Below are positions 13,123 through 31,190 of a stretch of DNA of 64,000 nucleotides, in pieces. The DNA comes from an uncultured Muribaculaceae bacterium (GTDB lineage: Bacteria > Bacillota_I > Bacilli_A > RF39 > UBA660), in NCBI GenBank assembly GCA_964408085.1, contig CAYOYB010000004.1, forward strand, positions 81,231-145,230, given 5' to 3'. Positions within the stretch are counted from its first letter, which is position 1. Each line of letters begins with the position of its first letter. The position numbers and the translations under genes are program-made. The notes beneath the pieces were generated by a model that was not told where the DNA came from, did no database searches, and worked only from the letters and a program-made list of their open reading frames with translations.

Positions 13123-13143
13123 GTGGGTTCATTTACCATTGTT
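13100..13143. repeat. attL-like junction of the inserted element
   Basis: Core CACCTC at 13117-13122 is shared with the other junction. The element arm GTTCATTTACCATTGTT at 13127-13143 is the 16/17 inverted repeat of 28505-28521. Confidence 0.75.
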
Positions 13144-13199
13144 CATTATTTACTTTTGTTCCACATATGTTTATTTTGCGGTTCAAAAGTAAAATAACT

Positions 13200-14090
13200 T
13201 TAATTTTCTTTCACTTTATATTTTTCTAAAAGTTCTTCTCTATGTGAATAAATTTGATTAAGTGATAATTTAGCAAGCAAATCATTCAATTTTATAACTT
13301 CTTCATCATCAATTGTAACAACATCTTTATCTGGATATTCTTCTTGTTTGGAAATCATTATTGCCAAAGATGGAGAAATTGGGTAATATAGTTCTAATTT
13401 ATCCGGTATGCCATCGAAATCACCATGAAAATTAATTGCTGGCTGATCTGAAGTAATAAAATTATCATTTTTACTTTTTAATAAACAAACTTGATAATTT
13501 TTTTCATATAAATATAAGCCTATCTTAAATGCTATACTATGGCGAATTAAAATCCATACATTTTCCCCTCTAATATCAGGATCTTTTAATTTTAAACACA
13601 TATTTTTAGTATTTTCTTTTATTTTTTTCGTTCGACAATATTGTTCAGCAATTGCATGAAAGAATTGTATAGAATTACTTTTTTCTTCTAAAAAAGAAAA
13701 ATCTTTTTTATATAAAAAATCTAACATTGGATTTAATCTATCTTCTACTATACAATTAAAAAATGACTCTTCACTTTGTTTAGCAAAATCTATTATTTCA
13801 TCTCGTTTTACACAACTTTTATAATTATATGCTTCTTTTAATTTCTCGTTAAACTGTTGATATAAAAGCATTAGCTTTTCGCAACCATTTTCTGCAAAAT
13901 ACTTTCCAATTTCAATTTCTTTATCTGTACATGGTATAAACTTATAAAAATTATTTTCTTGACCAATATTCATTATATTTGTTTTAAATATTTTCTTCTT
14001 TTCTCTAAGACAATATATCATTTCTTTAGTAGACCATTTTCTTAAATACTTTCTATAAACATAATGTGGATGTTTTGTAATACTTGTCAC
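13200..14090 (-). CDS. DUF4238-like protein (unknown function)
   Basis: N-terminal HPHYVYRKYLRKW and internal FITSDQPAINF resemble DUF4238 hallmarks (H-Y-x-P/x-x-YL and tSDnP). GTG start with an AGGTGA RBS. Confidence 0.5.
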   Translation of the reverse strand: MTSITKHPHYVYRKYLRKWSTKEMIYCLREKKKIFKTNIMNIGQENNFYKFIPCTDKEIEIGKYFAENGCEKLMLLYQQFNEKLKEAYNYKSCVKRDEIIDFAKQSEESFFNCIVEDRLNPMLDFLYKKDFSFLEEKSNSIQFFHAIAEQYCRTKKIKENTKNMCLKLKDPDIRGENVWILIRHSIAFKIGLYLYEKNYQVCLLKSKNDNFITSDQPAINFHGDFDGIPDKLELYYPISPSLAIMISKQEEYPDKDVVTIDDEEVIKLNDLLAKLSLNQIYSHREELLEKYKVKEN

Positions 14091-14117
14091 TAGATAATCA
14101 CCTATATATATTATACA

Positions 14118-15773
14118 TTATTTTTTTCCTTTTCTACCATAAGGATTTCTCGCTAAATTTCTATTTTCATATTTAAAATTTATTTCTAGAGCTATATCAT
14201 ATTTATATTTGATAGTAATATTTCTATCTTTATCAATCACTATTCTATCGACTAAAGTATCTATCAATTCTTTTTTAGGTTTATTTAAATCCAATAGTTT
14301 TTTAATCTTTTTTGTATAATTTGGTAAAATACTACTTTTGTTTTTAATTTTATATTTTTTTACTTGTTCATTTTCAATACTTTCATTTATTTGTTTTAGT
14401 TTATTTTCTGATTCGCTTGCTAATACCTTATAAGTGTCTGCTGAAATTACCCCATCACATCTATCGTTATATAGAGTTGTTAACATATTTGTTATTTTAT
14501 CTTTTTCAATCTGTAATTCTTTAATAACTTTATCTATATCAGTTGTTTCTTTATGAATATTTTTAACAACTTCATTATTTAATTCATTTACATCAAGTTC
14601 TTTAATTAATTTAGATACTGATTTATTTATTTGTTCCAATATTTGTTCTTCTAAATAATTATATGGATAAAAATGTGAATAACATCTTCCTCTTATTGGA
14701 TCTCTAGAATATCTATTACAATTAACAGACCAATAATCTAACTTTTTTCTATAAAGAACTGTTAGCCTATTTTGACACTCTTTACAAAATAATTTCCCTT
14801 CTAACAATCTTTTTTCCCTATTTGTCTTAACTTCATAATTTCTAGTATTTCGCTTTCTTAAAGTATTAACATATTTAAAAGTCTCTTTATCAACTAATGC
14901 CTCATGGGTATTTTCTACAATAATCCATAATTTTTCGTCTAAAGTTATTTTTTTCTTTGATTTATAATTCACTTTTGTTTGAGTATGCTGAATCATATCA
15001 CCAGTATATATTCTGTTACACAAGATTTTTTTTACTGTAGAAATATTCCAGTTATCTCTATCTATTAATCTTGATGAATAATTAGTTTTTTTATAACCGC
15101 TTGGTGTAACAATATTTTCTTTATTTAATCTATTTGCTATTTCAGTTGGTCCAATTCCTTCTGCACGCCAGTTAAATATATTTTTTACTATAGGAGCAGT
15201 TTCAGGATTAGGGATCAAATGTCCTTTATCTTTTGGATCTCTCATATAACCAAAGCAAGGTAGACTACCAACAAATTTTCCATTTTTTCTTTTTTCATTC
15301 AAAACATTTCTAATTTTAATAGAATTTTGTTTACTATAATAATCATTACAAGCAATTATAAATGTTGATGAATCGTTACTAGCTTGATTTTTAAAACTAT
15401 CATATGACTCAAGTATAGATATAAATCTTACACTATTTTCTGGGAAAAATGTTTCAATATAATAACCTGTCATAACATGATCTCTACCAAGTCTAGATAA
15501 ATCTTTAACTATTACACAATTTATCTTTTTTTGTTTTATATCTTCTATCATTTTTTGAAATCCAGGTCTATCAAAATCTGTACCAGAATATCCATCATCA
15601 ACATATTCTTCAACTAAATTAAATGCATTATTCTTAACATAACTTCTCAATAATTCTTTTTGATTAATTACACTTTCACTATCAGATTCATATTTTTTAT
15701 CTTTATCTTCTTGAGATAATCTTATATAGATTCCAACATTGAAATCCATTCCAGCTAAGTAAGTATTATACAT
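14118..15773 (-). CDS. large serine recombinase
   Basis: N-terminal resolvase domain (VGIYIRLSQED..., VKDLSRLGRDH), a recombinase domain, a Cys-rich zinc ribbon (CKECQNRL...CNRY...RC) and a C-terminal coiled coil. 551 aa. Confidence 0.92.
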   Translation of the reverse strand: MYNTYLAGMDFNVGIYIRLSQEDKDKKYESDSESVINQKELLRSYVKNNAFNLVEEYVDDGYSGTDFDRPGFQKMIEDIKQKKINCVIVKDLSRLGRDHVMTGYYIETFFPENSVRFISILESYDSFKNQASNDSSTFIIACNDYYSKQNSIKIRNVLNEKRKNGKFVGSLPCFGYMRDPKDKGHLIPNPETAPIVKNIFNWRAEGIGPTEIANRLNKENIVTPSGYKKTNYSSRLIDRDNWNISTVKKILCNRIYTGDMIQHTQTKVNYKSKKKITLDEKLWIIVENTHEALVDKETFKYVNTLRKRNTRNYEVKTNREKRLLEGKLFCKECQNRLTVLYRKKLDYWSVNCNRYSRDPIRGRCYSHFYPYNYLEEQILEQINKSVSKLIKELDVNELNNEVVKNIHKETTDIDKVIKELQIEKDKITNMLTTLYNDRCDGVISADTYKVLASESENKLKQINESIENEQVKKYKIKNKSSILPNYTKKIKKLLDLNKPKKELIDTLVDRIVIDKDRNITIKYKYDIALEINFKYENRNLARNPYGRKGKK

Positions 15774-16045
15774 TCATTCCTCCAATCATCTTACTTAATT
15801 GGGTATTAAGACAATTTAATAATAACGCGATATTAAAAAAATTGCAATACATCATTTTTTAATTTCTTCATCTTTTTTTATCTCTTCGATAAGATATTTT
15901 AAAATAAGATCTTTAAACTTAATTTCATTATTCATAACAACACCTATTTAAAGTTATGTTATAATTTCTAATTTTATTATCCTTCATTTTTTCAACCCCC
16001 TTGGTTTCAAATAAAAAACTATCAGTTCCTTTTCACCAATAGTTA

Positions 16046-16237
16046 TTAAATATTAACTTTATTTTTTATAAGCTCATTCTTTTTTATATCAGTATCATCA
16101 AAAAGATTCTTTTCTTCTCTTATAATGTATTTAAAACACTTCCTATTAAACATGTCTTTTAATCTTTCTTCGTTTAGATTTGGTTTATTAGTTTTAAATT
16201 CGTATGTAATCACATAATTAACTTTTCTTTTTTTCAT
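16046..16237 (-). CDS. hypothetical small basic protein
   Basis: 63-aa ORF with an AAGGCGGAG RBS. Confidence 0.45.
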   Translation of the reverse strand: MKKRKVNYVITYEFKTNKPNLNEERLKDMFNRKCFKYIIREEKNLFDDTDIKKNELIKNKVNI

Positions 16238-16305
16238 TTTCTCCGCCTTTCACCAAAATTGTAACGCACTTATAAAAATATGTCAGCAGTAAATTAAATG
16301 CTCAA

Positions 16306-16476
16306 TTACTTATCATTTCTAATAACTACTTCAAGATTTTTATAGATATATTCTTTTAACAATGATTCCATTGCAAATTGAAATGTAACTTTATTATTAG
16401 ATAATACTTTTTGAATTGCTTTCTCAGTATTACTATCTATCCTAAATTTCTTTTGTATAGTTTTATTTGCTCTCAT
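16306..16476 (-). CDS. small ribbon-helix-helix-like protein (56 aa; not in the ORF track)
   Basis: My own translation: MRANKTIQKKFRIDSNTEKAIQKVLSNNKVTFQFAMESLLKEYIYKNLEVVIRNDK. A perfect AAGGAGG RBS lies 7 nt upstream. Confidence 0.5.
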   Translation of the reverse strand: MRANKTIQKKFRIDSNTEKAIQKVLSNNKVTFQFAMESLLKEYIYKNLEVVIRNDK

Positions 16477-16824
16477 ATAAACATCCTCCTTTCTATAATT
16501 TTGGTACCGTCTTTATATTCTTATAGATATAAAAATAAAAATATTTTTAAACTAAAATTAAAGCAGGATAAATCTTGTTTACAAACAACTAGCCAGTGTC
16601 TAGTTTATCCTTATTTTATAAGAGATTTCAAAATTGCAAAGTGTAAACATTTTTCATATTTGTTATACAATTGTATACATCATAATCCTTATTTTATAAA
16701 GGGTGTTATACACTCGTATACATTTTTTTAATACGAAATATTTCATTTTTGATACATAAATAATAATTTTTGTAAAAAAATTTGGTACCAGAATTATATA
16801 TTTTTTAAGGGGCAATTTTGAATA

Positions 16825-16857
16825 CAAAAAACACCAACAAGAATAGCTTGCTGGTGC
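16825..16857 (-). terminator. terminator of the dnd operon
   Basis: Minus strand reads GCACCAGCAAGCTATTCTTGTTGGTG followed by TTTTTTGT. This is one of the few GC-containing hairpins in the region. Confidence 0.6.
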
Positions 16858-17095
16858 AATAAATTTTACAATTATTTCGTATTCTACTATATTGTAACAT
16901 ACAATTGTTGAAAGTCAATAAGGAAAAAATGTTGGATAAATAACTGCAAAAATCTCTGATTAAAATCTAATTAAGCCTTATAAATACTGCATTTTCCTAA
17001 ATAGATACTTTAATGGATATTTGCCTATTTACAATAACAAATAATTTTTTTATACCAATAATTTATAAAAATGCGACTACATTTTTTAATATTTA

Positions 17096-18208
17096 TTATT
17101 CAATTTCATCAAAATCATTATAATCACAATAAGATGATAATGAGAATCTTATTGTCTCCCTTATTTGTTCGTCCGAATAACCACATTCTTTTAAAACATA
17201 TGATGGTTTTGAATTACTACAAGCAGAGCCTGTACTTGCAGATATAATTGAAGAAGCATTTTTCAAAAACAGTTGATTATTATAGCCTTTTATTTGAATA
17301 CTAACTAATCCTGGTATTTTATTCTCAAAATTATTATTTATAATTATTCTATCACCAAATACATCAATCATTTTTTTCTTAAATTGTTTTTCATATTTTT
17401 TTAATATTTCAATATTTTTTTCCAAATCTTTTTCAGCTATTTCAGCAGCTTTACCCAAGCCAACTATTTGATGTACTGCTAAAGTACCACTTCTAAATCC
17501 AAATTCCTGTTCTCCTCCATGTATCAAAGGAGTTATTTTAGGATACAAATTATTTGAATCCTTTCTTATAAATAATATTCCAATACCTTTTGGGCCATAA
17601 AATTTATGTGCAGACATAGACAAAAAATCTATATTTGCCATTTCTTGTAAATTAATATAACCTTTACCAGCAAATTGAGTTGCATCAGTATGAAATAAAA
17701 CATTATGCTTATGACAAATTTCAGATAATCTCTTTACATCGTTAATACTTCCCAATTCATTATTTGCCCACATTATTGAAACTAAAATTGTATTCTCTTT
17801 GATATTTTTTTCTAGGATTTCTGGTAAAACAATTCCCTCACGATTAACAGGTAAAAATGTAACTTCAAAACCGTTTTCTTCTAAAAAAATGGCAGTATTT
17901 TTTATACAAGAATGTTCTACTGCACTTACTATAATATGATTGCCTTTATACTTATTCGCATGAGTATAGCCCTTTAATACCAAATTATTACTTTCAGTAG
18001 AACCACTTGTAAATATTACTTCATCATTTCTACAATTAACAAATGAGGCAACTCTTTGTCTAGCTAAGTCTACTGCTTCTTGAGATTTTAATGCTTGATT
18101 ATAATATTTACTATTAGGATTACCATAAAATTCTGTAATATATGGCAGCATTTCATCACATACCTCAGGTAAAACTCTTGTAGTTGCTGAATTATCTAGA
18201 TATAACAT
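17096..18208 (-). CDS. dndA: cysteine desulfurase DndA (IscS/NifS family)
   Basis: Class V aminotransferase motifs, SAHKFYGPKG (PLP Lys) and the active-site Cys in STGSACS. It is the last gene of the dnd operon. Start at the ATG at 18208, after AAGAAGGTGA. Confidence 0.85.
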   Translation of the reverse strand: MLYLDNSATTRVLPEVCDEMLPYITEFYGNPNSKYYNQALKSQEAVDLARQRVASFVNCRNDEVIFTSGSTESNNLVLKGYTHANKYKGNHIIVSAVEHSCIKNTAIFLEENGFEVTFLPVNREGIVLPEILEKNIKENTILVSIMWANNELGSINDVKRLSEICHKHNVLFHTDATQFAGKGYINLQEMANIDFLSMSAHKFYGPKGIGILFIRKDSNNLYPKITPLIHGGEQEFGFRSGTLAVHQIVGLGKAAEIAEKDLEKNIEILKKYEKQFKKKMIDVFGDRIIINNNFENKIPGLVSIQIKGYNNQLFLKNASSIISASTGSACSNSKPSYVLKECGYSDEQIRETIRFSLSSYCDYNDFDEIE

Positions 18209-18222
18209 TTTATTCACCTTCT

Positions 18223-18609
18223 TTAAAGTAATTCAAAAATGGAATCTAATACCTTGTCGTAATTACCTTTTAACTGATATTCATCATATAATACATTAAC
18301 GCCTCTAGAAATATGTGCATTAAATAATTCAGGAAATAATTCTGAATCTGTAACTTCTTTATTTAATTGTTCAATTAATAATGCCTTATATAATTCATCA
18401 AAATCTCCTGTTATAGTAATTCTTTGATATGTAGCACCTCCGTGATCGTTGTTGATTTCATTGTACTGTTTTCTTGGATCTTCTTTGCTTTTTAATGAGA
18501 GACCTATAGCTATTCTCATAACAGAGGCTTTGGTGGATAATTTTAGTAACTTTTGTAATTCTATTATCTTCTGTTCAACTTCTAATGAAGTAGTTAATCT
18601 ACCATTCAT
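18223..18609 (-). CDS. dndE: DNA sulfur modification protein DndE
   Basis: 128 aa, immediately after dndD. N-terminal RLTTS...LKLSTKASVMRIAIGLSL resembles the DndE family. Confidence 0.7.
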   Translation of the reverse strand: MNGRLTTSLEVEQKIIELQKLLKLSTKASVMRIAIGLSLKSKEDPRKQYNEINNDHGGATYQRITITGDFDELYKALLIEQLNKEVTDSELFPELFNAHISRGVNVLYDEYQLKGNYDKVLDSIFELL

Positions 18610-18611
18610 AA

Positions 18612-20537
18612 TTAAAAATAAGCCTCCTTTATTTCTGTTTTTCCTTCTGTTTCATCATTAATCAATATATAATTTTTACTTAAATTCTTCTTAACAATTT
18701 TATATAAATTTCCTACAATTTCCTCATCTGTTGATAATATTAAAACCTGTTCAGAAATAGTGCATAATATTTTTTCTACGAATAATGCCCTATTTTCCTT
18801 ATCTAACCTAGCTAATGGAGTATCAAATGTAAAAACATTATTACGATCAGACAGTTTAAATATAGACCATACTATAGCAGCGATAAGCAACTGTTTCTCA
18901 CCAGCTGATAAAATAGTAATATCCTTTTCAAACCCTTTATTATCAAATAAAATAATTTCATAAGAATCATTATTTATTTCCATTTTTGTAATGTAATTTT
19001 CCTTCTTATTAATTTCATCAAACTTTTTTACAGCTAATTCTGATATTCTTGTTAAATAATTAATAGTTTGCTTTTTCTTATATTCTTCAGAAACTTTTAG
19101 AATTTTTCTCGCTATAAAAAAACTATTCTCTTCTTTTTTTTCTGAATCTAATTTCTTTTCCATTGTTTCAAGTTCAATAAATGAACTATTAACTTCTAAT
19201 GTAGCCCTTTTTATATTTTTTTCTACATCTCTTATTTTTATTTTCAATTCTTCTAAATCTATTTCTAACACTTTTATTTCTTTTAATAATTTTTGCAAAT
19301 CTTTAGAATTTGCATTTTCATTTTTATCAATTATTTGTTTATATAGTTTAGTACTAGTCAAATCATCTCTGCTACTTAATAAAATTTGTTTTAAAGAATA
19401 AATATCTAATTTTTCATATCTTTCTAAAAATTCATTTATTAGTTTATTTAATTTAGGAGTAGTATTATACTTGATATCTAATTCAGAATCATCAACCATA
19501 TCTAGTAATTCTTTTTTTATTTTTTTAACAGCTTGTTCACCTAAAAGCTGTTCAATTTCATCAACATATTTAAGTAAAATTTTTGGTTTTTCTTTTCGTA
19601 TTTCTTTGCTTATATTTTTAATTCTATTTGCATTAAGATAAAAAACTACATCATCCTCTAAAAAATCCTTTATTAAAGCCATATTTTCTTTTCTATTTTT
19701 TTCAAGCATTTCTAATGAACTTCTCATAGCAAATTTCTTTTTTTCATCAAGTCCACCATAATTTTCAAATTTTTTCATTAAATTTCTTAATTTAAAATGT
19801 TGTTCAGCTTCAGTATTTTTATATCGTATTAAAACATCAGTTAAATTTTTTAGATTTTTTTGGTTTTCATTATATTTATTTCTATATTCCAATAAATTAA
19901 TTTCATCAGTAGAAAAAACCTTTCTACTTTTTTCCTTTTCTATGTAAAAAGATATGTCATCTTCCATTTTTTCAAAAATATTTAAATTAAAATTGACATT
20001 TATAATTTCTCTTAAATATTCTGATATTTTGTTTTCATCTATTATTTGAGCAATTTTTTCGCCATCAAATAACATTGTATCTATTACAGATGGCGGCATT
20101 ATTTCTTTTAATTTTGTTTGCATCTGTTCTATTTCTTCATCATTCAAAAAAATTTTATTTTTCTTAACCCGTAACGTTTCTAATATTGAGTCGTTTACCT
20201 TCTTCCATGATCTAGTAACTGTATAATTATTTTCAATATAATTCTCAATTAGACTGAACTCTATGTCTATTTCGTAGTAGGAAATTTTCTTTTTTAATTC
20301 TACATAATTAAATATCTTTTTTAGTGAATTATAATAAACATTACTATTTGTTTTTAAACCATAGGCATAAGAACCAAATAAACCTGTTTTTATAGAATTT
20401 AATAAAGTTGTCTTACCTGCACCATTTTTTCCACCTATTAAAATAATATTCTTATCCTTACTAACATTAATATTAAATATATTATTTTCATTTCTATATG
20501 GACCGATATTATGTAACTTTATCTTAGTTATTTTCAT
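18612..20537 (-). CDS. dndD: DNA sulfur modification protein DndD (SMC-like ATPase)
   Basis: Walker A GGKNGAGKTT, a long coiled-coil middle, signature LSAGEKQ, and the DndD-type FDTPLARLDKENR. Confidence 0.85.
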   Translation of the reverse strand: MKITKIKLHNIGPYRNENNIFNINVSKDKNIILIGGKNGAGKTTLLNSIKTGLFGSYAYGLKTNSNVYYNSLKKIFNYVELKKKISYYEIDIEFSLIENYIENNYTVTRSWKKVNDSILETLRVKKNKIFLNDEEIEQMQTKLKEIMPPSVIDTMLFDGEKIAQIIDENKISEYLREIINVNFNLNIFEKMEDDISFYIEKEKSRKVFSTDEINLLEYRNKYNENQKNLKNLTDVLIRYKNTEAEQHFKLRNLMKKFENYGGLDEKKKFAMRSSLEMLEKNRKENMALIKDFLEDDVVFYLNANRIKNISKEIRKEKPKILLKYVDEIEQLLGEQAVKKIKKELLDMVDDSELDIKYNTTPKLNKLINEFLERYEKLDIYSLKQILLSSRDDLTSTKLYKQIIDKNENANSKDLQKLLKEIKVLEIDLEELKIKIRDVEKNIKRATLEVNSSFIELETMEKKLDSEKKEENSFFIARKILKVSEEYKKKQTINYLTRISELAVKKFDEINKKENYITKMEINNDSYEIILFDNKGFEKDITILSAGEKQLLIAAIVWSIFKLSDRNNVFTFDTPLARLDKENRALFVEKILCTISEQVLILSTDEEIVGNLYKIVKKNLSKNYILINDETEGKTEIKEAYF

Positions 20538-20556
20538 AGTTGAGTCCTCCTATCTA

Positions 20557-22128
20557 CTAAATATGAATATAATCCTGATTTAATAATTTAGAAAGATCCT
20601 TTTGAAGATTATCTCTCCTTGTTAAACCAAAACTATTTTTTTCTAAATACAAGATTTTTTTAACCAATTCAAAATCAATATTGTTATTTACACAAACATC
20701 TTTTAGTATTTCTAACTCACTTTCTCCTAATAATTTTATATCGTCAGATATAAAATTTAAATCTATTCCCATCACATCTTTATATATTTTACAAACATCG
20801 TTATTCCAATAACCTTGTTCTAACCATAACTTACTAATCGCTACTAATTCATCTTTTGTAATTAATTCATATTCAATCCCATGTTCTTCTTTTAATTTTT
20901 TTTGAACTTCCAATAATTTTCTTAACATATCTTTTCTTTCTTCATAAGTAAATGGACCTAATCCTAATTGACCATAACCTTCATTCAATTTACAAATAAT
21001 TTTAGGGTCATAGCTACTGGATAAATCAATCTTATTATTTTTTATATATTTAACTACTTCAGATTTGGTTTTAAAAATATTCCACTGTTCATTAAAATTA
21101 TCAATACCTGTTTCAATGTTTATCTCTATTTTCTCTCTATCCCCCTTTTTAGGAATAATCAAAATATTATCTTTATGATTTACAGAGGAAAAATAAATTT
21201 GCCCTGTAGCTCTTCTCTTCATTCTTAAATTTCTATTATCTCTAATACTATATAACCAATTTCTATATTCTAATAAAGGAACTAACCATTTTATACCACT
21301 TGTTATAAATCCATTTAATGCTTTATCTTCTGCAACAACAGTACATACCCAACAACCAAATCTACTATTGCCACAACTTCCAGCTTTCTTAGTATCTTCA
21401 TCTACTATTAATGGACATTCTGTACTTGCAGAACTTTCAGCATATAATTTAAATAGCTCTTGGTTATTGCCTCCCCATGGGCAAGGATAATTTAACAATA
21501 CATCCCAAACATCATCTATATTAAAATCTATTATAGGTGCAAATGTAAATGCATTACTAAGAGTCGTATGTCGCATTAGATCGCTGCTTTTTACTGAATG
21601 AGAATTTAAAACACGATCTCTTGAATTACTTTCACCTTTTCTAACACCTAATACCATAATTGCTTCGCCATTAGCAGCTACTATATCCCTAATAAATCTA
21701 TTCGCAGGTTCAATTTTCATTCGATCAGTACACCATCTAAATGTTTGATTAGGGCAAGGATATCCCTTTCCAATTAAATTAGCCCAAAAAGTATTATCAT
21801 ATTGAGGTTGAACTTTATGTGTACTAAGGGGTAAATTATTTTTTTTACCATATTGTTCCATTTTATATAGTGTAGAATTGATCTCATTAATAATTAAAGG
21901 AGTTTCTACTAGAGTATCAGAACTTATAATATATACATGTTTTTTTAATTTTTCTGGTGCTAACTCAGACAGTGCCGTTAAAACAACAGTACATGTAGCT
22001 GTTGAATCCTTTCCTCCACTATAACCTATAATCCATGGTCTATCATCTTGTAAATAAACTCGTTTTGCTCTATCTATCGCATCTCTATATTTTTTGCCTT
22101 TTTGCTCTAATATGTTTGTAAGTTTCAT
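20557..22128 (-). CDS. dndC: DNA phosphorothioation protein DndC (PAPS-reductase-like ATP pyrophosphatase)
   Basis: P-loop YSGGKDST and a Cys cluster (CGNSRFGCWVC). 523 aa. Confidence 0.88.
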   Translation of the reverse strand: MKLTNILEQKGKKYRDAIDRAKRVYLQDDRPWIIGYSGGKDSTATCTVVLTALSELAPEKLKKHVYIISSDTLVETPLIINEINSTLYKMEQYGKKNNLPLSTHKVQPQYDNTFWANLIGKGYPCPNQTFRWCTDRMKIEPANRFIRDIVAANGEAIMVLGVRKGESNSRDRVLNSHSVKSSDLMRHTTLSNAFTFAPIIDFNIDDVWDVLLNYPCPWGGNNQELFKLYAESSASTECPLIVDEDTKKAGSCGNSRFGCWVCTVVAEDKALNGFITSGIKWLVPLLEYRNWLYSIRDNRNLRMKRRATGQIYFSSVNHKDNILIIPKKGDREKIEINIETGIDNFNEQWNIFKTKSEVVKYIKNNKIDLSSSYDPKIICKLNEGYGQLGLGPFTYEERKDMLRKLLEVQKKLKEEHGIEYELITKDELVAISKLWLEQGYWNNDVCKIYKDVMGIDLNFISDDIKLLGESELEILKDVCVNNNIDFELVKKILYLEKNSFGLTRRDNLQKDLSKLLNQDYIHI

Positions 22129-22148
22129 AACTGCACTTCCTCTTTACT

Positions 22149-22652
22149 TTATAGTCCCTCTTCCTCCAAAATTTCATTAATAGTCTTTGCACCCAAATTA
22201 CTTTTTTCGAAGAATTTATCTATTATATCTTTTATATTATCAACTTGCTTATCAAAAATAACGTCTGAAAGCATATTATACAATATGTCAATTCCACCCA
22301 TAGCATAATCATCAAAAAGTTCTTTTTTATGTAATTTTCGAGGATTTGCTATAGAATTTTCTTCAAATGATAATTTCATAGCATTTTCAGCATCAACATC
22401 TATTTCATCACTCAAGCAAATTATTTGATATAAAAAATCAATTTTATCAGCTCTATTTTGCAATACATTTCTTGGTAAATTAGCAGTTATTGAGTTATCA
22501 TTATCTTGAACATCTTTTTGATTATTAATAAATCCAAGCACCCCTGACATCATATAAATATCAACCAAATCAAAACCATACTTATTTTTTAATTCTTGAT
22601 ATTTTTCTGCTTTTTTACCCTTTATTACAATATCAGTTTGAAAAGTTAACAT
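22149..22652 (-). CDS. small helical dnd-associated protein (167 aa), function unknown
   Basis: Translationally coupled: it overlaps the upstream ATPase gene by 7 nt and ends 20 nt before dndC. No DGQHR (DndB) motif. Confidence 0.5.
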   Translation of the reverse strand: MLTFQTDIVIKGKKAEKYQELKNKYGFDLVDIYMMSGVLGFINNQKDVQDNDNSITANLPRNVLQNRADKIDFLYQIICLSDEIDVDAENAMKLSFEENSIANPRKLHKKELFDDYAMGGIDILYNMLSDVIFDKQVDNIKDIIDKFFEKSNLGAKTINEILEEEGL

Positions 22653-24637
22653 TTAATTATATCCCCCTTCTCAACTAATGAGACGCTAGACGTTGTTCCA
22701 ACTTTGTCTATATCATACATTAATCCAATTCTATCTTTCAATGTATCTTCAACTACACCATCCCATTGACTATCTGAAGTGAACAATATTATTTGGTCTG
22801 TTAAAGAAGGTATTATTGATGTTACATTTTTCCTATGACTTAAATCTAATTTAGCAAAAGGGGCATCCATTACTAATGTAAATCTATCATCATCTGATAA
22901 TTCCGTTGTTTCGTCTTTTTCTCTAGAAATAAATTCTTTTGCAATTGATATAATGGATCCAACAAAAGCAAAACTTGTAACAATTTTTTCGCCTTCAGAT
23001 AATGTAGTCGTTTTAAATTCATCAGTTACATTAAAATTATAATCATCTTCAATATAAATTGATTTTTCAGAATTTAACATCTTAGATAAAAGTTCACTTA
23101 TTTTATTCTGTAAATCATCTTTAACTTCTCTTTCTTTTTTATTTAATCTATTAGTCATATCATTTATCAATTTTTGGCATATATCTACTTTAAATTGAAC
23201 AGCATCATTAATATTACTAGAAACAGTAATCCTACTTCGTTCATCTTCTTTATTTCTTTGGGATTGCTTCATAACTTCTATTTGATTTTTACAACTACCA
23301 ATAGCTTGATTCTTAGAAGCAATTGAATTTCTCAATTGAATATACTCATCATTATATTTAGATAAATCTTGATCACCAACATCAGCAATTAATTTTTCAT
23401 TATCGTTAATTTTATTTGTAATAATATCCTTATTATTTATTAGATTATTATAATCTTCATACATTCTATTGAAATTCTCATAATACTTTCTATTATTTTC
23501 AATTGCATTATTAATATGAACTTCAAGACTTTTTAATAAAACACTATAACTTTCTGGAGGCAAATAACTTTTCAATTTTTCAAGTCTTTTAATTGCATCT
23601 TGATTATTATATAAATTATTTCCACAAATACATACGCCATCATTTAAAATATGATTAATCGCATTTGCATTTATTCCTTCTATTACTTTATCCCTCAGAT
23701 CGCTTTTTTGGATTTTTTCCTGTAATATTTCAAAGGTTGAGCCTAAAAAATAATTAACACTTGCCGTGCCAAATGTTTTAAATATTTGAATTTTCTTTTT
23801 TTCTATTTCGTCTTGAATCTTTTCCATTTGCTTGTTGTATTCAACCCTCTTATTCTGTAATTCTTTTAATGCTGCATTAGACTTTAGAATTTCATTAACT
23901 TTGGATTGCCTTTTTTCTAATTCTATTAATTCATCCTCATATTTTTCTTTATTTTTATTTTCTATATCTAATTTTTCATCTAACAATTTTAAATCTTCAT
24001 TTATCTGATTTAACTTAGAAGAATTATCCGAAACAAATTCAGTCTCAAATTCCTTTTTGGCTTTTTCTAAATGGTACTTAGAATTCTCAAGCACATCTAA
24101 ACCCAAAAGATTTTTTACAGCTTTTGATAAATCTTTTTTCCCTACTCGTTGATTATCAACTAAATCTTGCATTCTTTCACCATCAAACAAGAAATATGTT
24201 GATAAGTCTCTTGGAAATATTTCCCTAATTGCATTTTGAGTAGTTCGTTTGGTTTCTCCAGTTACTGGATCCGAAATAGTAAAAGTCAAATCTTCAACTA
24301 ATTTTTGAATATTACCATTAGAATTTCTAATATAATCAATATATTTTCTACAAGTATATATTTTTTTTGAGTGTTCAAATTCTAAACTGACTTCAACACA
24401 TGCTTTCTCCCCAACAGCAATTTTTGATAATATTTCTTTTGTAATTAATTCGTCAGGATTGTCTAATTTAATTTGCCCATATAAACACCAATTAAAAGCT
24501 TGTAATAAAGTAGTTTTTCCTGCACCATTATTAGCAATAATCACAGTTACATTTTTCTCTTTAGAAGTTGAAAAAGAGATTTCAGTATCGCCTTTAAACT
24601 GTCTAAAGTTGTGTAAATTCATTTTTCTGAATATCAT
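22646..24637 (-). CDS. second DndD-like SMC-type ATPase (paralogue class distinct from dndD)
   Basis: Walker A ANNGAGKTT, an E/K-rich coiled coil, LSEGEK, and VMDAPFAKLDLSHR, which parallels DndD's FDTPLARLDKENR. GAGGTG RBS. Confidence 0.7.
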   Translation of the reverse strand: MIFRKMNLHNFRQFKGDTEISFSTSKEKNVTVIIANNGAGKTTLLQAFNWCLYGQIKLDNPDELITKEILSKIAVGEKACVEVSLEFEHSKKIYTCRKYIDYIRNSNGNIQKLVEDLTFTISDPVTGETKRTTQNAIREIFPRDLSTYFLFDGERMQDLVDNQRVGKKDLSKAVKNLLGLDVLENSKYHLEKAKKEFETEFVSDNSSKLNQINEDLKLLDEKLDIENKNKEKYEDELIELEKRQSKVNEILKSNAALKELQNKRVEYNKQMEKIQDEIEKKKIQIFKTFGTASVNYFLGSTFEILQEKIQKSDLRDKVIEGINANAINHILNDGVCICGNNLYNNQDAIKRLEKLKSYLPPESYSVLLKSLEVHINNAIENNRKYYENFNRMYEDYNNLINNKDIITNKINDNEKLIADVGDQDLSKYNDEYIQLRNSIASKNQAIGSCKNQIEVMKQSQRNKEDERSRITVSSNINDAVQFKVDICQKLINDMTNRLNKKEREVKDDLQNKISELLSKMLNSEKSIYIEDDYNFNVTDEFKTTTLSEGEKIVTSFAFVGSIISIAKEFISREKDETTELSDDDRFTLVMDAPFAKLDLSHRKNVTSIIPSLTDQIILFTSDSQWDGVVEDTLKDRIGLMYDIDKVGTTSSVSLVEKGDIIKC

Positions 24638-24791
24638 TCTTTTTCACCTCTCGCTCAATTATATTTTTTATTACTTTAATCATTTCAGAATCTTTTTTTT
24701 CTTTGGTATTAAAATTTTTCTTTTCCGTAAATATTATTTCATACAAAACTTCTGCAGATATTTCATTAATCAATTCAGATCTACTCTTCAT
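24603..24791 (-). CDS. 62-aa Lys/Glu-rich ORF bridging the helicase and ATPase genes
   Basis: GGAGG lies 8 nt before the ATG. It overlaps the helicase stop by 11 nt and the ATPase start by 35 nt. It fills the only gap in the operon. Confidence 0.35.
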   Translation of the reverse strand: MKSRSELINEISAEVLYEIIFTEKKNFNTKEKKDSEMIKVIKNIIEREVKKNDIQKNEFTQL

Positions 24792-26940
24792 CTATAAAAC
24801 CTCCAACATTATATTTATCCCTAACATCATGTATTTTTTCTTTTTCAATTCCATAAATAGCTAATAAGTCATTAATGAATCTTTCACCCTGATCTTTATT
24901 TTCCGCTAAAGAGTTAAATTCATATACTCTTTTCAATTCACTCTCAACTAAACTAGAACCAGTATAATTTTCTTCTTCACTACATGGAACAGTAACAAAA
25001 TCATGAATATATGCATATTCTTTATCAGGATATAATCGAAGTACTCTTCCCCTTCTTTGAATAAATTCTTTTGGATCTGTACTACTTGAAAGAATAAAAG
25101 CATGCTGAATGGCTGGAATATTCACACCTTCATCAAGACATTTTATTGCAACTATAGCCTGTAGATCTTTTCCTTCACTAAACATTTCTATAATTTCTGA
25201 TCGTTCTTCTGATGTTTCTTCTGATGTGAATTTCCTATTCTTTATACCAAACTCATTCCATAATATCTGACAAACTTTTCTAATTTGTCTTTCTTCACTT
25301 CCATCTATTTCATCAATGGTTTTGGTCGCTCCACAATAAACTAATATATAGTTTTTATTAAAATATTGACTCATCAAATTTCTAAGTACGACTAATTTAT
25401 TACTCGCACCAGCTACTAGTCTTGCTCTTTTTATAAGTAAATTTTTTGCAATGTCATTTATTATAATCTTTCCACTAACTTCTCTGATATTTTGAGCAAT
25501 CCTTAACGAAAGCTTATTATATTCATCTTGTTCTTCCACAGTCAATCTAACAATATGAGGAAAATAATAATATCTAGTCAAAAACCCCTCATTAATAGCT
25601 CTTTCAAGATCAAATGAATAAACCTCTCCACCAAAATAATTATATATAAATTCTGTATTTTCTTCATCTCTAAATCTTCTAGGTGTTGCAGATAACCCCA
25701 ATCTATACTTAAATTTTTCATCTAAGCTTGCTCTCATAGAATTTGTTCCCGCATTATGAGCTTCATCTACAACCAACAATATATCACCATTAACTTTGCT
25801 TAAAAATTTTTGCATATCTTCAGATGAAAATGTAGCATTTGTTGTTACAATAGTAAAATTGTCAATAGTTCCATAATTAAATAATTTAATTTTTCTATAC
25901 ACTTGCTCTTTCCAATTTGGATATACAGAATAACACACTACAGGATTCAAATTAAATTTCTTAACATCTTCTACCCATTGTTCAACCAAATGCTGATATG
26001 GACAAACAATTACAATTACTAATTTTTCAATTTCTTTCCATATTTCAGTTATGCCATATAAACCTGTTAACGTTTTTCCTGTACCAGTAGCCATAGTCAA
26101 CAATCCCATGTATTTATTATTTATCCAATTTGTTATTGCTTCTTTCTGATATTGCCTTGGTTTAAACCAATCAGGAATTAATGGAAATTCTATGTTTTCT
26201 TCGTAAGAAGGAATGATTTCGTTGAATTCTTCATGAGTATTTTCTTTTATATAATCTATTTTTTTAAATTCTAGCAATTTATTTTTTAATGCATCTGGAA
26301 ATGGTTGAATATTTAACCTATTAGTTTTATTATCCCATAAATTTGTAAAATCTATATCATATTCTTTAACATATTCATTTTCATCACTATTCCAAGATTT
26401 GAACACAACAAAAGATTCGAAATTGGTATATTGTCCATTATTAGTTTCATTCATAGAACCAGTAAACATAATTTTATTATGCATCGCATCCTCTATAATA
26501 CCAAATTTTTCATGGTATGCACCATAGTCATCCATTAATGCTATCTTAATATCCAATCTATCATCTGCTATAAGTGTAGCTATATAATTCAATTTTTCAT
26601 TAATGTTTTCAGATTCTATATTATTAAATTCTCTTATCATAGCATCCAATATAACATCCGATTTCATTTTATATCCTAAATTAATAGTATCTATATCCTC
26701 TTTACTAAGTTTTGGAGAAGCTATTATTTCAACTTTACCTCCATTTTCAATCAAATTTGATAGTCCTTGAGAGGCATTAACTAAAGAAGAAATTGTAAAA
26801 TAACCAACTGCCCTTTTATAATAAGTTGCAACTGATAATAAAGGATTATAAAAATCTTTTACCATATTGTTTTTGCTACTTCTATATGATCGTTCTATAC
26901 TAATATCAGTTAACAACATTTTACCACCTATGACTTTCAT
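24781..26940 (-). CDS. PLD-family nuclease domain fused to an SF2 (ResIII/DEAH) helicase
   Basis: Single HKD motif HEKFGIIED in the N-terminal ~230 aa. Helicase motifs MATGTGKT (I), VVDEAHN (II), LSATP (III) and QRRGRVLR (VI). The start could instead be Met8 at 26919. Confidence 0.8.
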   Translation of the reverse strand: MKVIGGKMLLTDISIERSYRSSKNNMVKDFYNPLLSVATYYKRAVGYFTISSLVNASQGLSNLIENGGKVEIIASPKLSKEDIDTINLGYKMKSDVILDAMIREFNNIESENINEKLNYIATLIADDRLDIKIALMDDYGAYHEKFGIIEDAMHNKIMFTGSMNETNNGQYTNFESFVVFKSWNSDENEYVKEYDIDFTNLWDNKTNRLNIQPFPDALKNKLLEFKKIDYIKENTHEEFNEIIPSYEENIEFPLIPDWFKPRQYQKEAITNWINNKYMGLLTMATGTGKTLTGLYGITEIWKEIEKLVIVIVCPYQHLVEQWVEDVKKFNLNPVVCYSVYPNWKEQVYRKIKLFNYGTIDNFTIVTTNATFSSEDMQKFLSKVNGDILLVVDEAHNAGTNSMRASLDEKFKYRLGLSATPRRFRDEENTEFIYNYFGGEVYSFDLERAINEGFLTRYYYFPHIVRLTVEEQDEYNKLSLRIAQNIREVSGKIIINDIAKNLLIKRARLVAGASNKLVVLRNLMSQYFNKNYILVYCGATKTIDEIDGSEERQIRKVCQILWNEFGIKNRKFTSEETSEERSEIIEMFSEGKDLQAIVAIKCLDEGVNIPAIQHAFILSSSTDPKEFIQRRGRVLRLYPDKEYAYIHDFVTVPCSEEENYTGSSLVESELKRVYEFNSLAENKDQGERFINDLLAIYGIEKEKIHDVRDKYNVGGFIDEE

Positions 26941-27174
26941 TTCTAAGGGAATTTTCCAATATTATTATATCATGTATACTTTGAGTTGTAAATTAAATGG
27001 AGAATCTATACTTAATAATTTATTTTACAAATAAATTAATTTTTTTCGTTATTTTTCATTCTAAATAAAAATATTACAATTAAATATTAAATTATCATTA
27101 ATAACATAATACGATAATAACGCTTTAAACTAAAAAAATCCATACAAAACATGGAAAAGATCGTTTATAAAACA

Positions 27175-27205
27175 TTAAAAAAGGCCCTACCACTAGATAG
27201 TGCCT
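27175..27205 (-). terminator. terminator after fic
   Basis: Hairpin AGGCACTATCTAGTGGTAGGGCCT followed by TTTTTT on the minus strand. Confidence 0.55.
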
Positions 27206-27271
27206 ATATGAAAATAATTTAATATTTTCTTCATTAATAATATGTTATAAATATTAGTTTAGATCAATAAA

Positions 27272-28120
27272 TTAATCTTTCCTATCAAATAATTCTTTAA
27301 TAATTAAATCTTGAGAGTGTAAATTATTATTTTTTCCTAATAATAAATTTTCATAAAATTTAATTAAATAACTACTATCTTCTTTTATATTTAAATAATT
27401 ATTATAATAATTACTTCTTAATAAAGCATTTCTAAAATATACAGATTTATTCTTAAATAAAGTATTATCCACACTATAACCTAAACTTATTAAATATTTT
27501 TCTATAAATAATGCAGTAGTTCTAGTATTACCCTCTCTAAATGGATGAACCTGCCATATACTAGATGAAAATTTAGTAATGCTGTTTATAACTTCTACTA
27601 TATTCATTTCTTTATAGTTTTTTTCTTTTTCTAAAGATATATCATATTCTAATGATTCAGTTAATGTTTTACAATCACCATATGCCACTGAATCATTATT
27701 TAATATTTTTTCATGTTTTGAAAAATCTATTTTTCTAAACTCACCTGCAAACTCATAAACATCTTGAAATAAATATTTATGGACATATTTTAAATAATCA
27801 ACAGATAATTCAAATTTATTTTCTTGTAATAATTCAACTATCCTAGTAGACACAAAATCACATTCTAATTCGCTATGATTTATTTCTTTTTTACCTTCTT
27901 TTTCTATATAATATTCTTTTAATTCATTTTCTACTTGTTCAATAGTTAAATTACCATTAACATTATTACTTACAAGCTTTTCTAAATATTTAGAAGGTTT
28001 TAAATTATCTACTTCCTGTAAACCAATAGCCATATCCCATTGTAATTGTTTTACATAATTATTAGACTTATATTCTTCTTGATATTCATTAACACTTGAA
28101 TCTAATTCTTTTTCACTCAT
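27272..28120 (-). CDS. Fic/Fido-domain protein with a degenerate active-site motif
   Basis: HPFREGNTRTTA compared with the canonical HPFx(D/E)GNGRxxR. 282 aa. Strong AGGAGG RBS. Confidence 0.8.
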   Translation of the reverse strand: MSEKELDSSVNEYQEEYKSNNYVKQLQWDMAIGLQEVDNLKPSKYLEKLVSNNVNGNLTIEQVENELKEYYIEKEGKKEINHSELECDFVSTRIVELLQENKFELSVDYLKYVHKYLFQDVYEFAGEFRKIDFSKHEKILNNDSVAYGDCKTLTESLEYDISLEKEKNYKEMNIVEVINSITKFSSSIWQVHPFREGNTRTTALFIEKYLISLGYSVDNTLFKNKSVYFRNALLRSNYYNNYLNIKEDSSYLIKFYENLLLGKNNNLHSQDLIIKELFDRKD

Positions 28121-28183
28121 AATTTATACCTCCTAACCATTTTTAATTATACCATATTTTTTATAATAATTAAGTTATTATAT

Positions 28184-28441
28184 TTAATTATCTAATTCTA
28201 ATCTATAATAAACCCTTAAATCCATAATAGCTTGTCTAAAAATTTTCTTTTCTTCTTCCTGAGAATAAATTATCACATCATGCAATGTCTTATAAATTGA
28301 TATGACACTTACATTTTTATTATCTAAATATTTATAATTTAAATAAATCAAATCTGCTAATAATCTAGCATCATTTTCTATTCTTAACCTTTTTTCTTCT
28401 TTAATAAAATTCTTTTCGTTTATCGTCATTCCATCCTCCAT
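28184..28441 (-). CDS. hypothetical small protein upstream of fic
   Basis: 85-aa ORF (alternative start at 28429). It begins about 60 nt inside the element's right end. Confidence 0.45.
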   Translation of the reverse strand: MEDGMTINEKNFIKEEKRLRIENDARLLADLIYLNYKYLDNKNVSVISIYKTLHDVIIYSQEEEKKIFRQAIMDLRVYYRLELDN

Positions 28442-28504
28442 TTATTGCGTATTTTTTTACTATTGTTTTATTAAATATACATGTCTCAATACCCAATTAA
28501 ATTT

Positions 28505-28548
28505 AACAATGGTAACTGAACATTTCACCTCCTGCATTTATGTGATTA
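28505..28548. repeat. attR-like junction of the inserted element
   Basis: Element arm AACAATGGTAACTGAAC at 28505-28521. Core CACCTC at 28526-28531. Confidence 0.75.
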
Positions 28549-28790
28549 GACACAACAATTACATCACTATTATTTCCATAAGCTTCTAATATTCTATTTA
28601 CCCTTTCAGTTGGTGATAAAGTCTCATCACTAACTCTAGTCATCTTAACATCCACACCTAAATTTTTAAATAAATCATACATATATTGAGAAATCTCTAA
28701 AGTTAAATCTTTTTCAATTATACCATTGCCACTAGCTCCAGGATCTGAGCCCCCATGACCAGCATCTATAACAACTTTTAAATCATTCAT
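28526..28790 (-). pseudogene. 5' segment of the split N-acetylmuramoyl-L-alanine amidase (Amidase_3 N-terminus)
   Basis: MNDLKVVIDAGHGGSDPGA...VVSNHINAGG, then 7 element-derived codons and a stop in track ORF 28503..28790. Confidence 0.85.
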
Positions 28791-29075
28791 ATTTTACCTC
28801 CTAAAATAATTTTATGATTATAATTGAGAAAGGTGCCCATTTATAATTATACTTTTATATAAAAAATATTTTCCCTACATATTATAGCTTTTATATTTAC
28901 ATAATGATATAATAAACATGAAAGAAGGTAGATAAATATTATGATAATAATTTTTATTTTACTAACAATAGTCGCAATATTTGCAGGAATTCATGATGGA
29001 TCAAAATAAATATACCATAACTATTAAAATATAAAATAATACAAACAAAAAATCAAAACTTTAATTTTGATTTTT

Positions 29076-30171: not shown

Positions 30172-31101
30172 CTATAAATCTACAATTTCTCGCCAATTAT
30201 CAGGAAATCCAATTTTATTTAAAATACTATTAAGTGAAACTGTATCAACTTTACTATCTAAAATATCAATTTCATAACCTATCTCAAAAATAATATCGCG
30301 AAATTCTCCATCACTAAGCATTTTTTTCATAATCAAAATAATCGCATATAAATCATTTTTACCATAAATATATTCCCCTTCTTCATCTGTAGAAATATTT
30401 AAAATATTATGGTATTCATTATTAGGAATTACACGACTTGTTCTATGATCATATAAAATATCTTCATGAGCACATAAATTTCTAAAATTTGCTAACAAAG
30501 ATAAATAAATAGATAATGTCTCAACATCAGTTCTATATAACTTAGCAATTTCATTTTGGTCTTCATATTTTAATATACAAAATAATTCAGAAATAATACC
30601 AAAAGATAAAACTTTTACTAAAATCCACATTGGAATATAACCATAATTACTTAAATAGTGAAGAGTAGCTGAATGCTGACGACCATTAACTCTTATCTGT
30701 CTTTTCATTTTATTTAATATATCAAAAACTTGTCTTGAACGAGCTGGATCCTGCGTAAAATTTTCTGGATTCAAATAATCTTTATCCTTAAATCCATATT
30801 TTCTTGATAATTGGTAACTCATAATTGATTTAATATTATTTTCAATAATCAAAATATATTTAAAAATTGTATTACGAATTCTCCTGTCAAACACAAATGT
30901 TGCATATAACTCTTCAAATGTTGTCCCAGAAATAAACTTATCTTTATCAACAGTTGTAAACATATGTCGATAACCATTTATAAAAAAATAATTTTCACGA
31001 AACAAAATTTGCTTTGCAGTCTCTTCATCATTAATAATTAGACCTCTAGATTTTAAAATATCAATTTGTTCATCTAAGTTCTTAAATATTTTAGACTTCA
31101 T
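30172..31101 (-). CDS. Abi_2-family abortive-infection protein (AbiD/AbiF-like)
   Basis: N-terminus FKNLDEQIDILKSRGLIINDEETAKQILFRENYFFINGY is characteristic of Abi_2. Start at 31101 (MKSKIF). Confidence 0.8.
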   Translation of the reverse strand: MKSKIFKNLDEQIDILKSRGLIINDEETAKQILFRENYFFINGYRHMFTTVDKDKFISGTTFEELYATFVFDRRIRNTIFKYILIIENNIKSIMSYQLSRKYGFKDKDYLNPENFTQDPARSRQVFDILNKMKRQIRVNGRQHSATLHYLSNYGYIPMWILVKVLSFGIISELFCILKYEDQNEIAKLYRTDVETLSIYLSLLANFRNLCAHEDILYDHRTSRVIPNNEYHNILNISTDEEGEYIYGKNDLYAIILIMKKMLSDGEFRDIIFEIGYEIDILDSKVDTVSLNSILNKIGFPDNWREIVDL

Positions 31102-31190
31102 ACAATCACCTATAAAAATTATAGCATACAAAATATGAAAATAATATGTTTTTTTCGTGTAATTTATTTGATAAAATAAGACATTTACAT

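Follow-up and report, generated by a model that had tools for sequence, protein, structure and literature searches.

A gene encoding a nuclease fused to a helicase stands at the head of a dnd operon in the DNA that we analysed (a stretch of 64,000 nucleotides, here called the window). What is its product, and how does it serve the phosphorothioate (PT) modification genes that follow it? The preliminary description of this locus proposed a PT-dependent restriction enzyme with an architecture unlike that of the characterised PT-linked effectors, PbeABCD among them. Our results point to a different answer: the ORF at 24781..26940 is very probably pbeA and encodes the effector subunit in a complete bacterial PT antiviral cassette of the DndCDEA-PbeABCD type.

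The pbeA gene and its product

pbeA (24781..26940, minus strand) is a 719-aa ORF in which an HKD (PLD-family) nuclease is fused to an SF2 helicase-like ATPase. Its true start is probably the ATG at 26919 (Met8), which would give a protein of 712 aa; this start is likely because an AGGTGG Shine-Dalgarno sequence is placed 4 nt 5' of it and homologues start at Met8. Just 5' of the gene lies a promoter-like site, TTTACA-17-TGxTATAAT (26964..26992, minus strand), which had the top score of the scan, with 11 of 12 matches and an extended -10. This site is suggestive at most, because such sites are no commoner in this AT-rich region than in shuffles.

Three Pfam domains were found at scores far beyond chance. 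These were PLDc_2 (PF13091, aa 57-202, 26335..26772, minus strand; E 1e-9, 38.7 bits against a cut-off of 27), the ResIII/DEAH ATPase lobe 1 (PF04851, aa 259-422, 25675..26166, minus strand; E 5.7e-26) and the Helicase_C lobe 2 (PF00271, aa 518-635, 25036..25389, minus strand; E 2.2e-14). This HMM check bears out the earlier reading of a single-HKD PLD nuclease joined to a ResIII/SF2 helicase, and all the motifs quoted for it were found. The HKD motif, HEKFGIIED (aa 143-151), is the sole HxK..D motif of the protein and is followed by GSMN (161-164). Its spacing, H143-E-K145-FGIIE-D151, places the aspartate one residue farther from the lysine than the canonical HxK(x)4D does, and it fits the HKD nuclease signature HxK(x)4-5D ... 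GSxN (G161-S-M-N164). In the motor, SF2 motifs I, II, III and VI are intact: Walker A MATGTGKT (283-290), DEAH (392-395), SAT (417-419) and QRRGRVLR (motif VI, 628-635). Residues H143, K145, D151, G161, S162 and N164 are invariant in 18 diverse homologues (down to 45% identity), as are Walker A, the DE of DEAH and QRRGR. The invariance of the HKD/GSxN residues across such distant homologues argues for selection on catalysis.

The identity of the protein follows from its full-length match to the PADLOC PbeA model PDLC02704 (E 4.4e-240; aa 10-684 against model positions 1-680 of 682); each of the five PADLOC PbeA models gave a match. The published PbeA has the same three domains, PLDc_2, ResIII and Helicase_C (PMC6459918), and in the window pbeB, pbeC and pbeD follow. 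Thus, an architecture unlike PbeABCD can no longer be claimed. Nor does the view hold that the protein is uncharacterised, as PbeABCD has been published as a system (PMC6459918); with its PbeA identity and pbeBCD downstream, the protein is therefore neither a stand-alone enzyme nor uncharacterised as a system.

Other family models gave lower scores. The TIGRFAM family that the preliminary description mentioned does exist: TIGR04095 (dnd_restrict_1) matched aa 254-696 with E 1.2e-156 and 522.3 bits. Membership in it was not borne out, as its curated cut-off is 600, above this score. NF042964 (phospholipase D-like anti-phage protein) gave 104 bits, under its curated cut-off of 1100. Among relatives, a 48%-identical homologue from Halobacteroides halobius carries the TIGR04095 name, and the only name given to those of 68-69% identity is 'DEAD/DEAH box helicase family protein'. 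A sequence identical to the window's PbeA was present only in two short run assemblies, and the top homologue in the representative-genome scan was 45% identical.

The single-chain AlphaFold model of PbeA has a mean pLDDT of 80.8, with low confidence in the catalytic loop (aa 162-175). After the motor it contains only two helices (662-678 and 682-696), and we found no reader or DNA-recognition domain either in this model or by Pfam past Helicase_C. The structure-prediction comparison proposed in the preliminary description placed SauUSI, a PLD nuclease with an ATP-driven translocase, closest: PDB 7clg was the top Foldseek match (E 1.9e-22, 699 columns, 17-18% identity). SauUSI was also a sequence match (E 1.8e-22), and among PDB sequences XPB matched best (E 1.8e-32).

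The eight-gene cassette and its carrier element

The reported lead position of the gene and its linkage to dnd genes were confirmed. pbeA is the first of eight co-directional genes, in the order pbeA-pbeB-pbeC-pbeD-dndC-dndD-dndE-dndA; all eight ORFs are intact, and their spacing is tight or overlapping, with Shine-Dalgarno sites. pbeB (24603..24791, minus strand) encodes 62 aa, 40% of them charged. It shares 11 nt with the end of pbeA and 35 nt with the start of pbeC, and a GGAGG Shine-Dalgarno sequence lies 8 nt upstream. This ORF is conserved as a protein, with 85% identity in one related cassette (L081) and 58% in another (L084), and it is called in other assemblies too; PbeB has diverged more rapidly than PbeA or the Dnd proteins. 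In 30 of 32 related loci, a small ORF occupies the gap between PbeA and PbeC.

pbeC (22646..24637, minus strand) encodes an ABC ATPase that resembles DndD and contains a coiled coil (PADLOC PbeC, E 1.8e-138; Pfam AAA_23). Its mid-protein CxC motif, C336-I-C338-G, was found in 29 of 33 homologues adjoining PbeA and is absent from the window's DndD; from its position we assume that it lies at the coiled coil's apex. pbeD (22149..22652, minus strand) overlaps the pbeC stop and encodes a 167-aa protein that resembles a divergent DndE. Profile-profile comparison with DndE (hhalign) gave a probability of 84% and E 7e-6 over 115 columns. We hold the homology of PbeD and DndE with moderate confidence, because PbeD had no direct Pfam or PADLOC match; Pfam searches at E up to 10 gave nothing useful for PbeB or PbeD. 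In 31 of 32 loci, an ORF of 120-240 aa comes after PbeC.

The modification genes, all on the minus strand, are dndC (20557..22128; PAPS-reductase-like sulfurtransferase, TIGR03183 535 bits, cut-off 290), dndD (18612..20537; ABC ATPase, TIGR03185 361.7 bits, cut-off 245.85), dndE (18223..18609; Pfam DndE E 1.5e-16, under the NCBIfam equivalog cut-off) and dndA (17096..18217; cysteine desulfurase, TIGR03235 E 2.4e-119, 398.8 bits, under the cut-off of 480). dndA also matched DndA/SspA in PADLOC (E 1e-130). About 240 nt past dndA lies a terminator-like hairpin with a T run (16831..16857, minus strand), the sole such site in 12900..28900.

The archetype of this cassette is the DndCDEA-PbeABCD system of Haloterrigena jeotgali / Natrinema A29 (Xiong et al., 2019; PMC6459918), which has been re-annotated as a 'CxC ABC-ATPase-centred system' (PMC10853773). 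Besides the three domains and the full-length PADLOC match of PbeA, the two share the same order of partners, namely a small PbeB, a CxC ATPase PbeC and a PbeD of about 150 aa, and an adjoining dndCDEA module without dndB. They differ in that the window's cassette comes from a low-GC bacterium and the archetype from a haloarchaeon; the window's PbeA is only about 34% identical to haloarchaeal homologues (e.g. L048); the eight genes of the window all run in one direction, with the pbe genes first; and the window's cassette is part of a serine-recombinase element. The identity of PbeA and the order of the cassette support the earlier suggestion that this gene encodes the effector partner of a PT-modification module. 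The window's PbeA is another member of a published family and not a new class, because the system family has been published and is present in standard defence-finder databases.

The eight-gene cassette is found with 70-85% identity in three flanking contexts that differ from one another, and in other contexts it has been retained intact at 57-90% protein identity. Among 55 representative genomes with near-full-length PbeA homologues, 32 had PT genes of the Dnd or Ssp type no farther than 10 kb away and 23 had no PT genes in that range. Many relatives of PbeA adjoin Ssp-type rather than Dnd-type modification genes.

In the window the cassette lies on an inserted element of about 15.4 kb (13117..28531). 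Its junction sequences share a GAGGTG core at both ends (13117..13122 and 28526..28531), and it splits an amidase-LysM gene, interrupting the Amidase_3 domain; uninterrupted homologues exist for the rejoined gene. The element encodes a large serine recombinase (14118..15773, minus strand; Pfam Resolvase, Recombinase and Zn_ribbon_recom), and the 1.3 kb gap at 15773..17096 contains short ORFs only. Rfam found only tRNA-Trp in the whole window. The window belongs to a low-GC chromosome, and a spore-cortex hydrolase domain like that of SleB is encoded in it. We rejected a phage or plasmid as the source of the window, because the flanks carry housekeeping genes (phosphoketolase, an RNase R-like protein, methionine gamma-lyase).

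Two further ideas are unlikely to hold jointly. One is that the Dnd-Pbe cassette is the cargo of a 'gene-intervening element' like skin, SPbeta or gin; the other, separate from it, is that PbeA-type effectors are interchangeable back-ends for Dnd- and Ssp-type PT writers. If the first were true, the recombinase would excise the island of about 15.4 kb and make the amidase-LysM gene whole again, e.g. in the mother cell during sporulation, and a PT epigenetic and defence system would be switched with development. The mobile-element setting, together with the Ssp-Pbe pairings in relatives, bears on the mixing and matching of PT writers and effectors.

Mode of action

In the archetype, host DNA receives its PT marks from DndCDEA, and protection of about 10^4-fold requires all four Pbe proteins (PMC6459918). 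pbeB, pbeC and pbeD are indispensable, and deletion of pbeA leaves a residual resistance of less than tenfold; therefore the nuclease step is unproven. A PT-marked virus escapes. Protection also requires host PT, and deletion of dndCDEA causes no growth defect. Viral DNA stays intact for 6 h, without visible degradation, and its replication is blocked (PMC6459918). According to a 2025 review, it is still obscure what kind of restriction event takes place, and in the literature searched we found no experimental tests of any bacterial Pbe system and no later biochemical or structural work on PbeA.

We propose a model for how the cassette may work. PbeC, an ABC ATPase, and PbeD, a DndE-like DNA binder, would together scan DNA and read its PT status, and would recruit or license PbeA. 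By analogy with Nuc, Zucchini and SauUSI, PbeA would form a dimer by way of its single-HKD domain, and the dimer would have one active site. PbeA would then translocate on double-stranded DNA with ATP and nick or cut unmarked invader DNA, thus stopping replication, and PbeB may be a small regulator. Taken as a whole, we give this model an even chance of being right.

Xiong and colleagues proposed a mode without cleavage, in which PbeA is a translocase or remodeller that blocks viral replication together with PbeBCD, and the HKD domain is structural or acts on a target other than DNA. The viral DNA of the archetype, intact and blocked in its replication (PMC6459918), speaks for this mode. However, the HKD/GSxN residues do not vary even in distant homologues, SauUSI, the nearest structural relative, cuts DNA, and nicks or rare cuts could escape notice when total viral DNA is examined by Southern blot. 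We regard a mode without cleavage as unlikely.

A second alternative, raised in PMC10853773, is abortive infection: a phage factor would remove or modify PbeB, and PbeA would then attack the cell's own DNA and bring about death or arrest. A small, highly charged and fast-diverging PbeB would suit this role, but the escape of PT-marked virus in the archetype fits discrimination of self from non-self better than suicide set off by a trigger (PMC6459918), and we consider abortive infection quite improbable here.

The preliminary description followed the logic of classical restriction, by which PbeA would be a stand-alone PT-dependent endonuclease that cuts any PT-free DNA, and loss of dndCDEA would be lethal while PbeA is intact. 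A nuclease with a translocase does adjoin modification genes here, the fold is SauUSI-like, and TIGR04095 is named 'DNA phosphorothioation system restriction enzyme'. Against this, PbeA lacks a target-recognition domain and pbeB, pbeC and pbeD are kept with pbeA in most loci. The archetype contradicts this logic: it needs pbeBCD, and loss of PT is not toxic but abolishes protection, with no visible degradation of viral DNA (PMC6459918). Classical restriction is thus very unlikely. Least probable of all is that we see inactive cargo here, a passenger in decay on the mobile element. Although the cassette lies on an inserted element and dndA and dndE score under their NCBIfam equivalog cut-offs, all eight of its ORFs are intact, ribosome-binding sites are present, catalytic residues are conserved, and the cassette has been kept intact in other contexts.

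In the Pbe systems, a conserved nuclease motif stands against reports that DNA is not degraded. The compact operon of this low-GC Firmicute, with its eight intact genes, could suit work with HKD and Walker A mutants and the biochemistry of PbeABCD on PT-marked versus unmarked DNA.

Comparison with known systems

DndFGH and SspE/SspFGH have the same role as Pbe, that of partner to a PT writer, but their proteins are unrelated to those of Pbe. In the archetype study, DndFGH was toxic without PT, whereas PbeABCD was not (PMC6459918). An identity of the window's cassette with DndFGH, SspE or SBD-HNH enzymes was rejected, as Pfam and PADLOC gave no such matches; in PADLOC, no protein of the cassette hit a DndF, DndG, DndH or SspE model. 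TIGR04095 shows strong homology to the helicase half of PbeA, but its model lacks the PLD domain; as 522 bits is less than 600, NCBI rules would withhold its name from PbeA.

Single-HKD nucleases such as Zucchini, Nuc and BfiI build their active site by dimerisation. Zucchini/MitoPLD (PDB 4ggj), compared here by alignment, has one HKD per chain and a GSxN motif, like PbeA, and the HKD/GSxN residues of PbeA align with its catalytic core, although the sequence similarity is weak (E 6e-5 by profile, 0.04 by single sequence). Nuc and BfiI, likened to PbeA by description, are bacterial single-HKD nucleases of the PLD family. Unlike PbeA, none of these three enzymes has a motor domain.

[quoted passage not shown] SauUSI is a dimer held by its nuclease domains, which translocates with ATP and cuts DNA (PMC7913695). 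However, a C-terminal target-recognition domain belongs to the SauUSI chain itself, and the enzyme acts on 5mC/5hmC DNA unaided, whereas PbeA stops about 70 aa past the helicase, carries no reader domain and depends on PbeBCD.

Identity of the gene and its partners

On sequence grounds, the gene at 24781..26940 (minus strand, a 719-aa ORF) is pbeA. PADLOC PbeA models cover the protein end to end (best E 4.4e-240, aa 10-684 matching model positions 1-680 of 682). PbeA was originally defined by PLD-like, type III Res and helicase C-terminal domains (PMC6459918), and Pfam places PLDc_2 at aa 57-202 (E 1e-9), ResIII at aa 259-422 (E 5.7e-26) and Helicase_C at aa 518-635 (E 2.2e-14). All the motifs quoted in the preliminary description were found in the ORF. 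The HKD motif, HEKFGIIED (aa 143-151), is the only HxK..D in the protein and is accompanied by GSMN (161-164); the motor motifs are MATGTGKT (283-290), DEAH (392-395), SAT (417-419) and QRRGRVLR (628-635). No ribosome-binding site precedes the ORF's first ATG (26940). Met8, 21 nt downstream at 26919, has AGGTGG 4 nt upstream of its ATG, and most homologues begin at the matching position. Thus, the true protein probably starts at 26919 and is 712 aa long.

All the PbeABCD parts, together with dndC, dndD, dndE and dndA, are present in the window, in order and on one strand. The archetypal partners are PbeB (66 aa), PbeC (an AAA_23 ATPase) and PbeD (152 aa) (PMC6459918). A comparative study published later (PMC10853773) re-annotated PbeB as a small, fast-evolving protein, PbeC as an ABC ATPase of 'CxC' type, PbeD as a cognate of DndE, and PbeA as a fusion of an HKD endoDNase with an SF2 helicase. 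Here, pbeB (24603..24791, minus strand, 62 aa) has a GGAGG ribosome-binding site and overlaps both neighbours, at the stop of pbeA and the start of pbeC. Its product contains 40% charged residues and is 85% and 58% conserved in two related cassettes, values similar to those of PbeC and PbeD but lower than those of PbeA and the Dnd proteins. PbeC (663 aa; PADLOC PbeC E 1.8e-138; Pfam AAA_23) carries a mid-protein CxC motif, C336-I-C338-G, which occurs in 29 of 33 homologues encoded after a PbeA gene; the window's DndD lacks it. The pbeD ORF (167 aa) overlaps the pbeC stop and gives no match in direct Pfam and PADLOC searches. A profile built from 34 PbeD-position proteins matched that of DndE (probability 84%, E 7e-6, 115 columns). 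In representative genomes where PbeA adjoins PbeC, the gap between them holds a small ORF at 30 of 32 loci, and the next ORF after PbeC is 120-240 aa long at 31 of 32.

The genes dndC, dndD, dndE and dndA follow pbeD, and the gaps across the eight genes are 20 nt or less, or negative. The top promoter-like site lies directly upstream of pbeA and the sole terminator-like hairpin falls 3' of dndA; in such AT-rich DNA, neither of them is statistically convincing. The preliminary description was right to call the gene product a phosphorothioate (PT)-linked effector, but it set the architecture apart from the characterised PT-linked effectors, PbeABCD included, which is wrong because the protein is PbeA.

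A mobile element in an amidase gene

The whole cassette lies within a serine-recombinase element of about 15.4 kb (13117..28531), inserted in frame in an Amidase_3 gene with five LysM repeats. The N-terminal part of this gene (28503..28790) covers Amidase_3 model positions 1-78, and the C-terminal part (11984..13132) spans positions 83-173 and includes the LysM repeats. The sequence GAGGTG is common to the two junctions (13117..13122 and 28526..28531), where it is read in the same phase. Rejoined, the gene (465 aa) gives ...NHINAGGGDGAEVVY..., a sequence that can be aligned through the joint with a paralogue found in the window. Many metagenome contigs carry an uninterrupted homologue (55-72% identity; 72% in contig L155), and two of them (L092 and L139) share synteny with the right flank as well. 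This layout resembles the skin, SPbeta, gin and yin gene-intervening elements of spore formers.

Other genes on the element encode its large serine recombinase (14118..15773), a Fic-domain protein (27272..28120, minus strand) with a PADLOC hit to candidate defence family PDC-S72 (E 1.7e-79) and, between the recombinase and the element's end, a DUF4238 protein (13200..14090, minus strand). Just upstream of the Fic gene is an 85-aa ORF without matches (28184..28441, minus strand); the two may form a second defence or toxin module. The 1.3 kb between dndA and the recombinase (15773..17096) holds, apart from the terminator-like hairpin, only short minus-strand ORFs (63 and 56 aa); these may encode a recombination directionality factor or regulators. 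The remainder of the window is ordinary chromosomal DNA. It includes, just outside the element, an Abi_2 (abortive-infection-like) gene (30172..31131, minus strand), flanked by an HtrA-like protease gene and a second, intact Amidase_3 gene.

At 57-90% protein identity, the eight-gene cassette occurs on two other kinds of contig, adjoining a different serine-recombinase island in one and an IS110 transposase in the other. It therefore travels as a unit.

Homologues and linkage to PT genes

A homologue search with PbeA found thousands of related proteins. The closest, at 80% identity, come from metagenome assemblies. At 68-69% identity, database names go no further than 'DEAD/DEAH box helicase family protein'; a Halobacteroides halobius homologue (48%) is named 'DNA phosphorothioation system restriction enzyme'. 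The TIGRFAM that the preliminary description referred to is TIGR04095. It does match aa 254-696 (E 1.2e-156), but at 522 bits, below the curated cut-off of 600.

Among representative genomes, 55 loci whose PbeA homologue is nearly full-length were classified by the PT genes within 10 kb. Canonical DndC was found at 17 and Ssp-type genes at 15; 23 had neither, several of these being on short contigs. In PMC6459918, 42% of PbeAC pairs were reported to lie near dndCD. At L005 (2706..16096), L001, L006, L009, L010, L021, L031, L058 and L060, an Ssp-type module (SspD/BrxP-like, SspB, SspC and SspA by PADLOC) precedes pbeABCD in place of dndCDEA, as in 15 of the 55 loci overall. These are the representative genomes with PbeA closest to the window's (41-45% identity), and we found no description of an Ssp-Pbe pairing in the papers examined. 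Six other loci (L047, L056, L057, L061, L063 and L064) carry distant PbeA-like HKD-helicase genes (26-31% identity) near dndC/dndD with no adjoining PbeC, which points to a simpler arrangement of a Dnd-linked nuclease-helicase, also mentioned in PMC10853773.

Predicted activities and a model for PbeA

The haloarchaeal dndCDEA-pbeABCD system protects about 10^4-fold against virus SNJ1, and virus with PT marks escapes it. Every single pbe deletion impaired protection, but residual resistance of less than tenfold persisted without pbeA. Mutating the catalytic site of DndA abolished protection and was not toxic, and viral DNA failed to replicate yet was intact on Southern blots (PMC6459918). The preliminary description had proposed a simple restriction logic, with toxicity on loss of modification as a test. 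The haloarchaeal data contradict both, and this classical logic is probably wrong. Three explanations are live: limited nicking or cutting of viral DNA that was missed by Southern blot, a roadblock without cutting, and a suicide response set off by a trigger (proposed in PMC10853773). The restriction event was still described as obscure in a 2025 review, and our literature search found no later biochemical or structural work on PbeA.

We propose that PbeC-PbeD may scan DNA, read its PT status and license a PbeA dimer, which would translocate and nick or cut unmarked DNA; PbeB would be a regulator. We infer this order of events. Across 18 homologues down to 45% identity, H143, K145, D151, G161, S162 and N164 are invariant, as are the Walker A residues, D392, E393 and Q628-R632, which argues that the predicted nuclease and ATPase activities are both under selection. 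The structure predicted by AlphaFold has a mean pLDDT of 80.8, and its catalytic loop (162-175) is of low confidence. It comprises a domain of PLD type, a pair of RecA-like lobes and a short tail of helices, with no additional reader domain.

The closest sequences are XPB for the motor (E 1.8e-32) and Zucchini/MitoPLD for the PLD core. The top solved-structure match to the model is SauUSI (7clg; E 1.9e-22, 699 columns), a dimer held through its PLD nuclease domains, in which recognition of the target triggers DNA cutting and translocation powered by ATP (PMC7913695). Because PbeA lacks the recognition domain present in SauUSI, its target choice must come from its partners.
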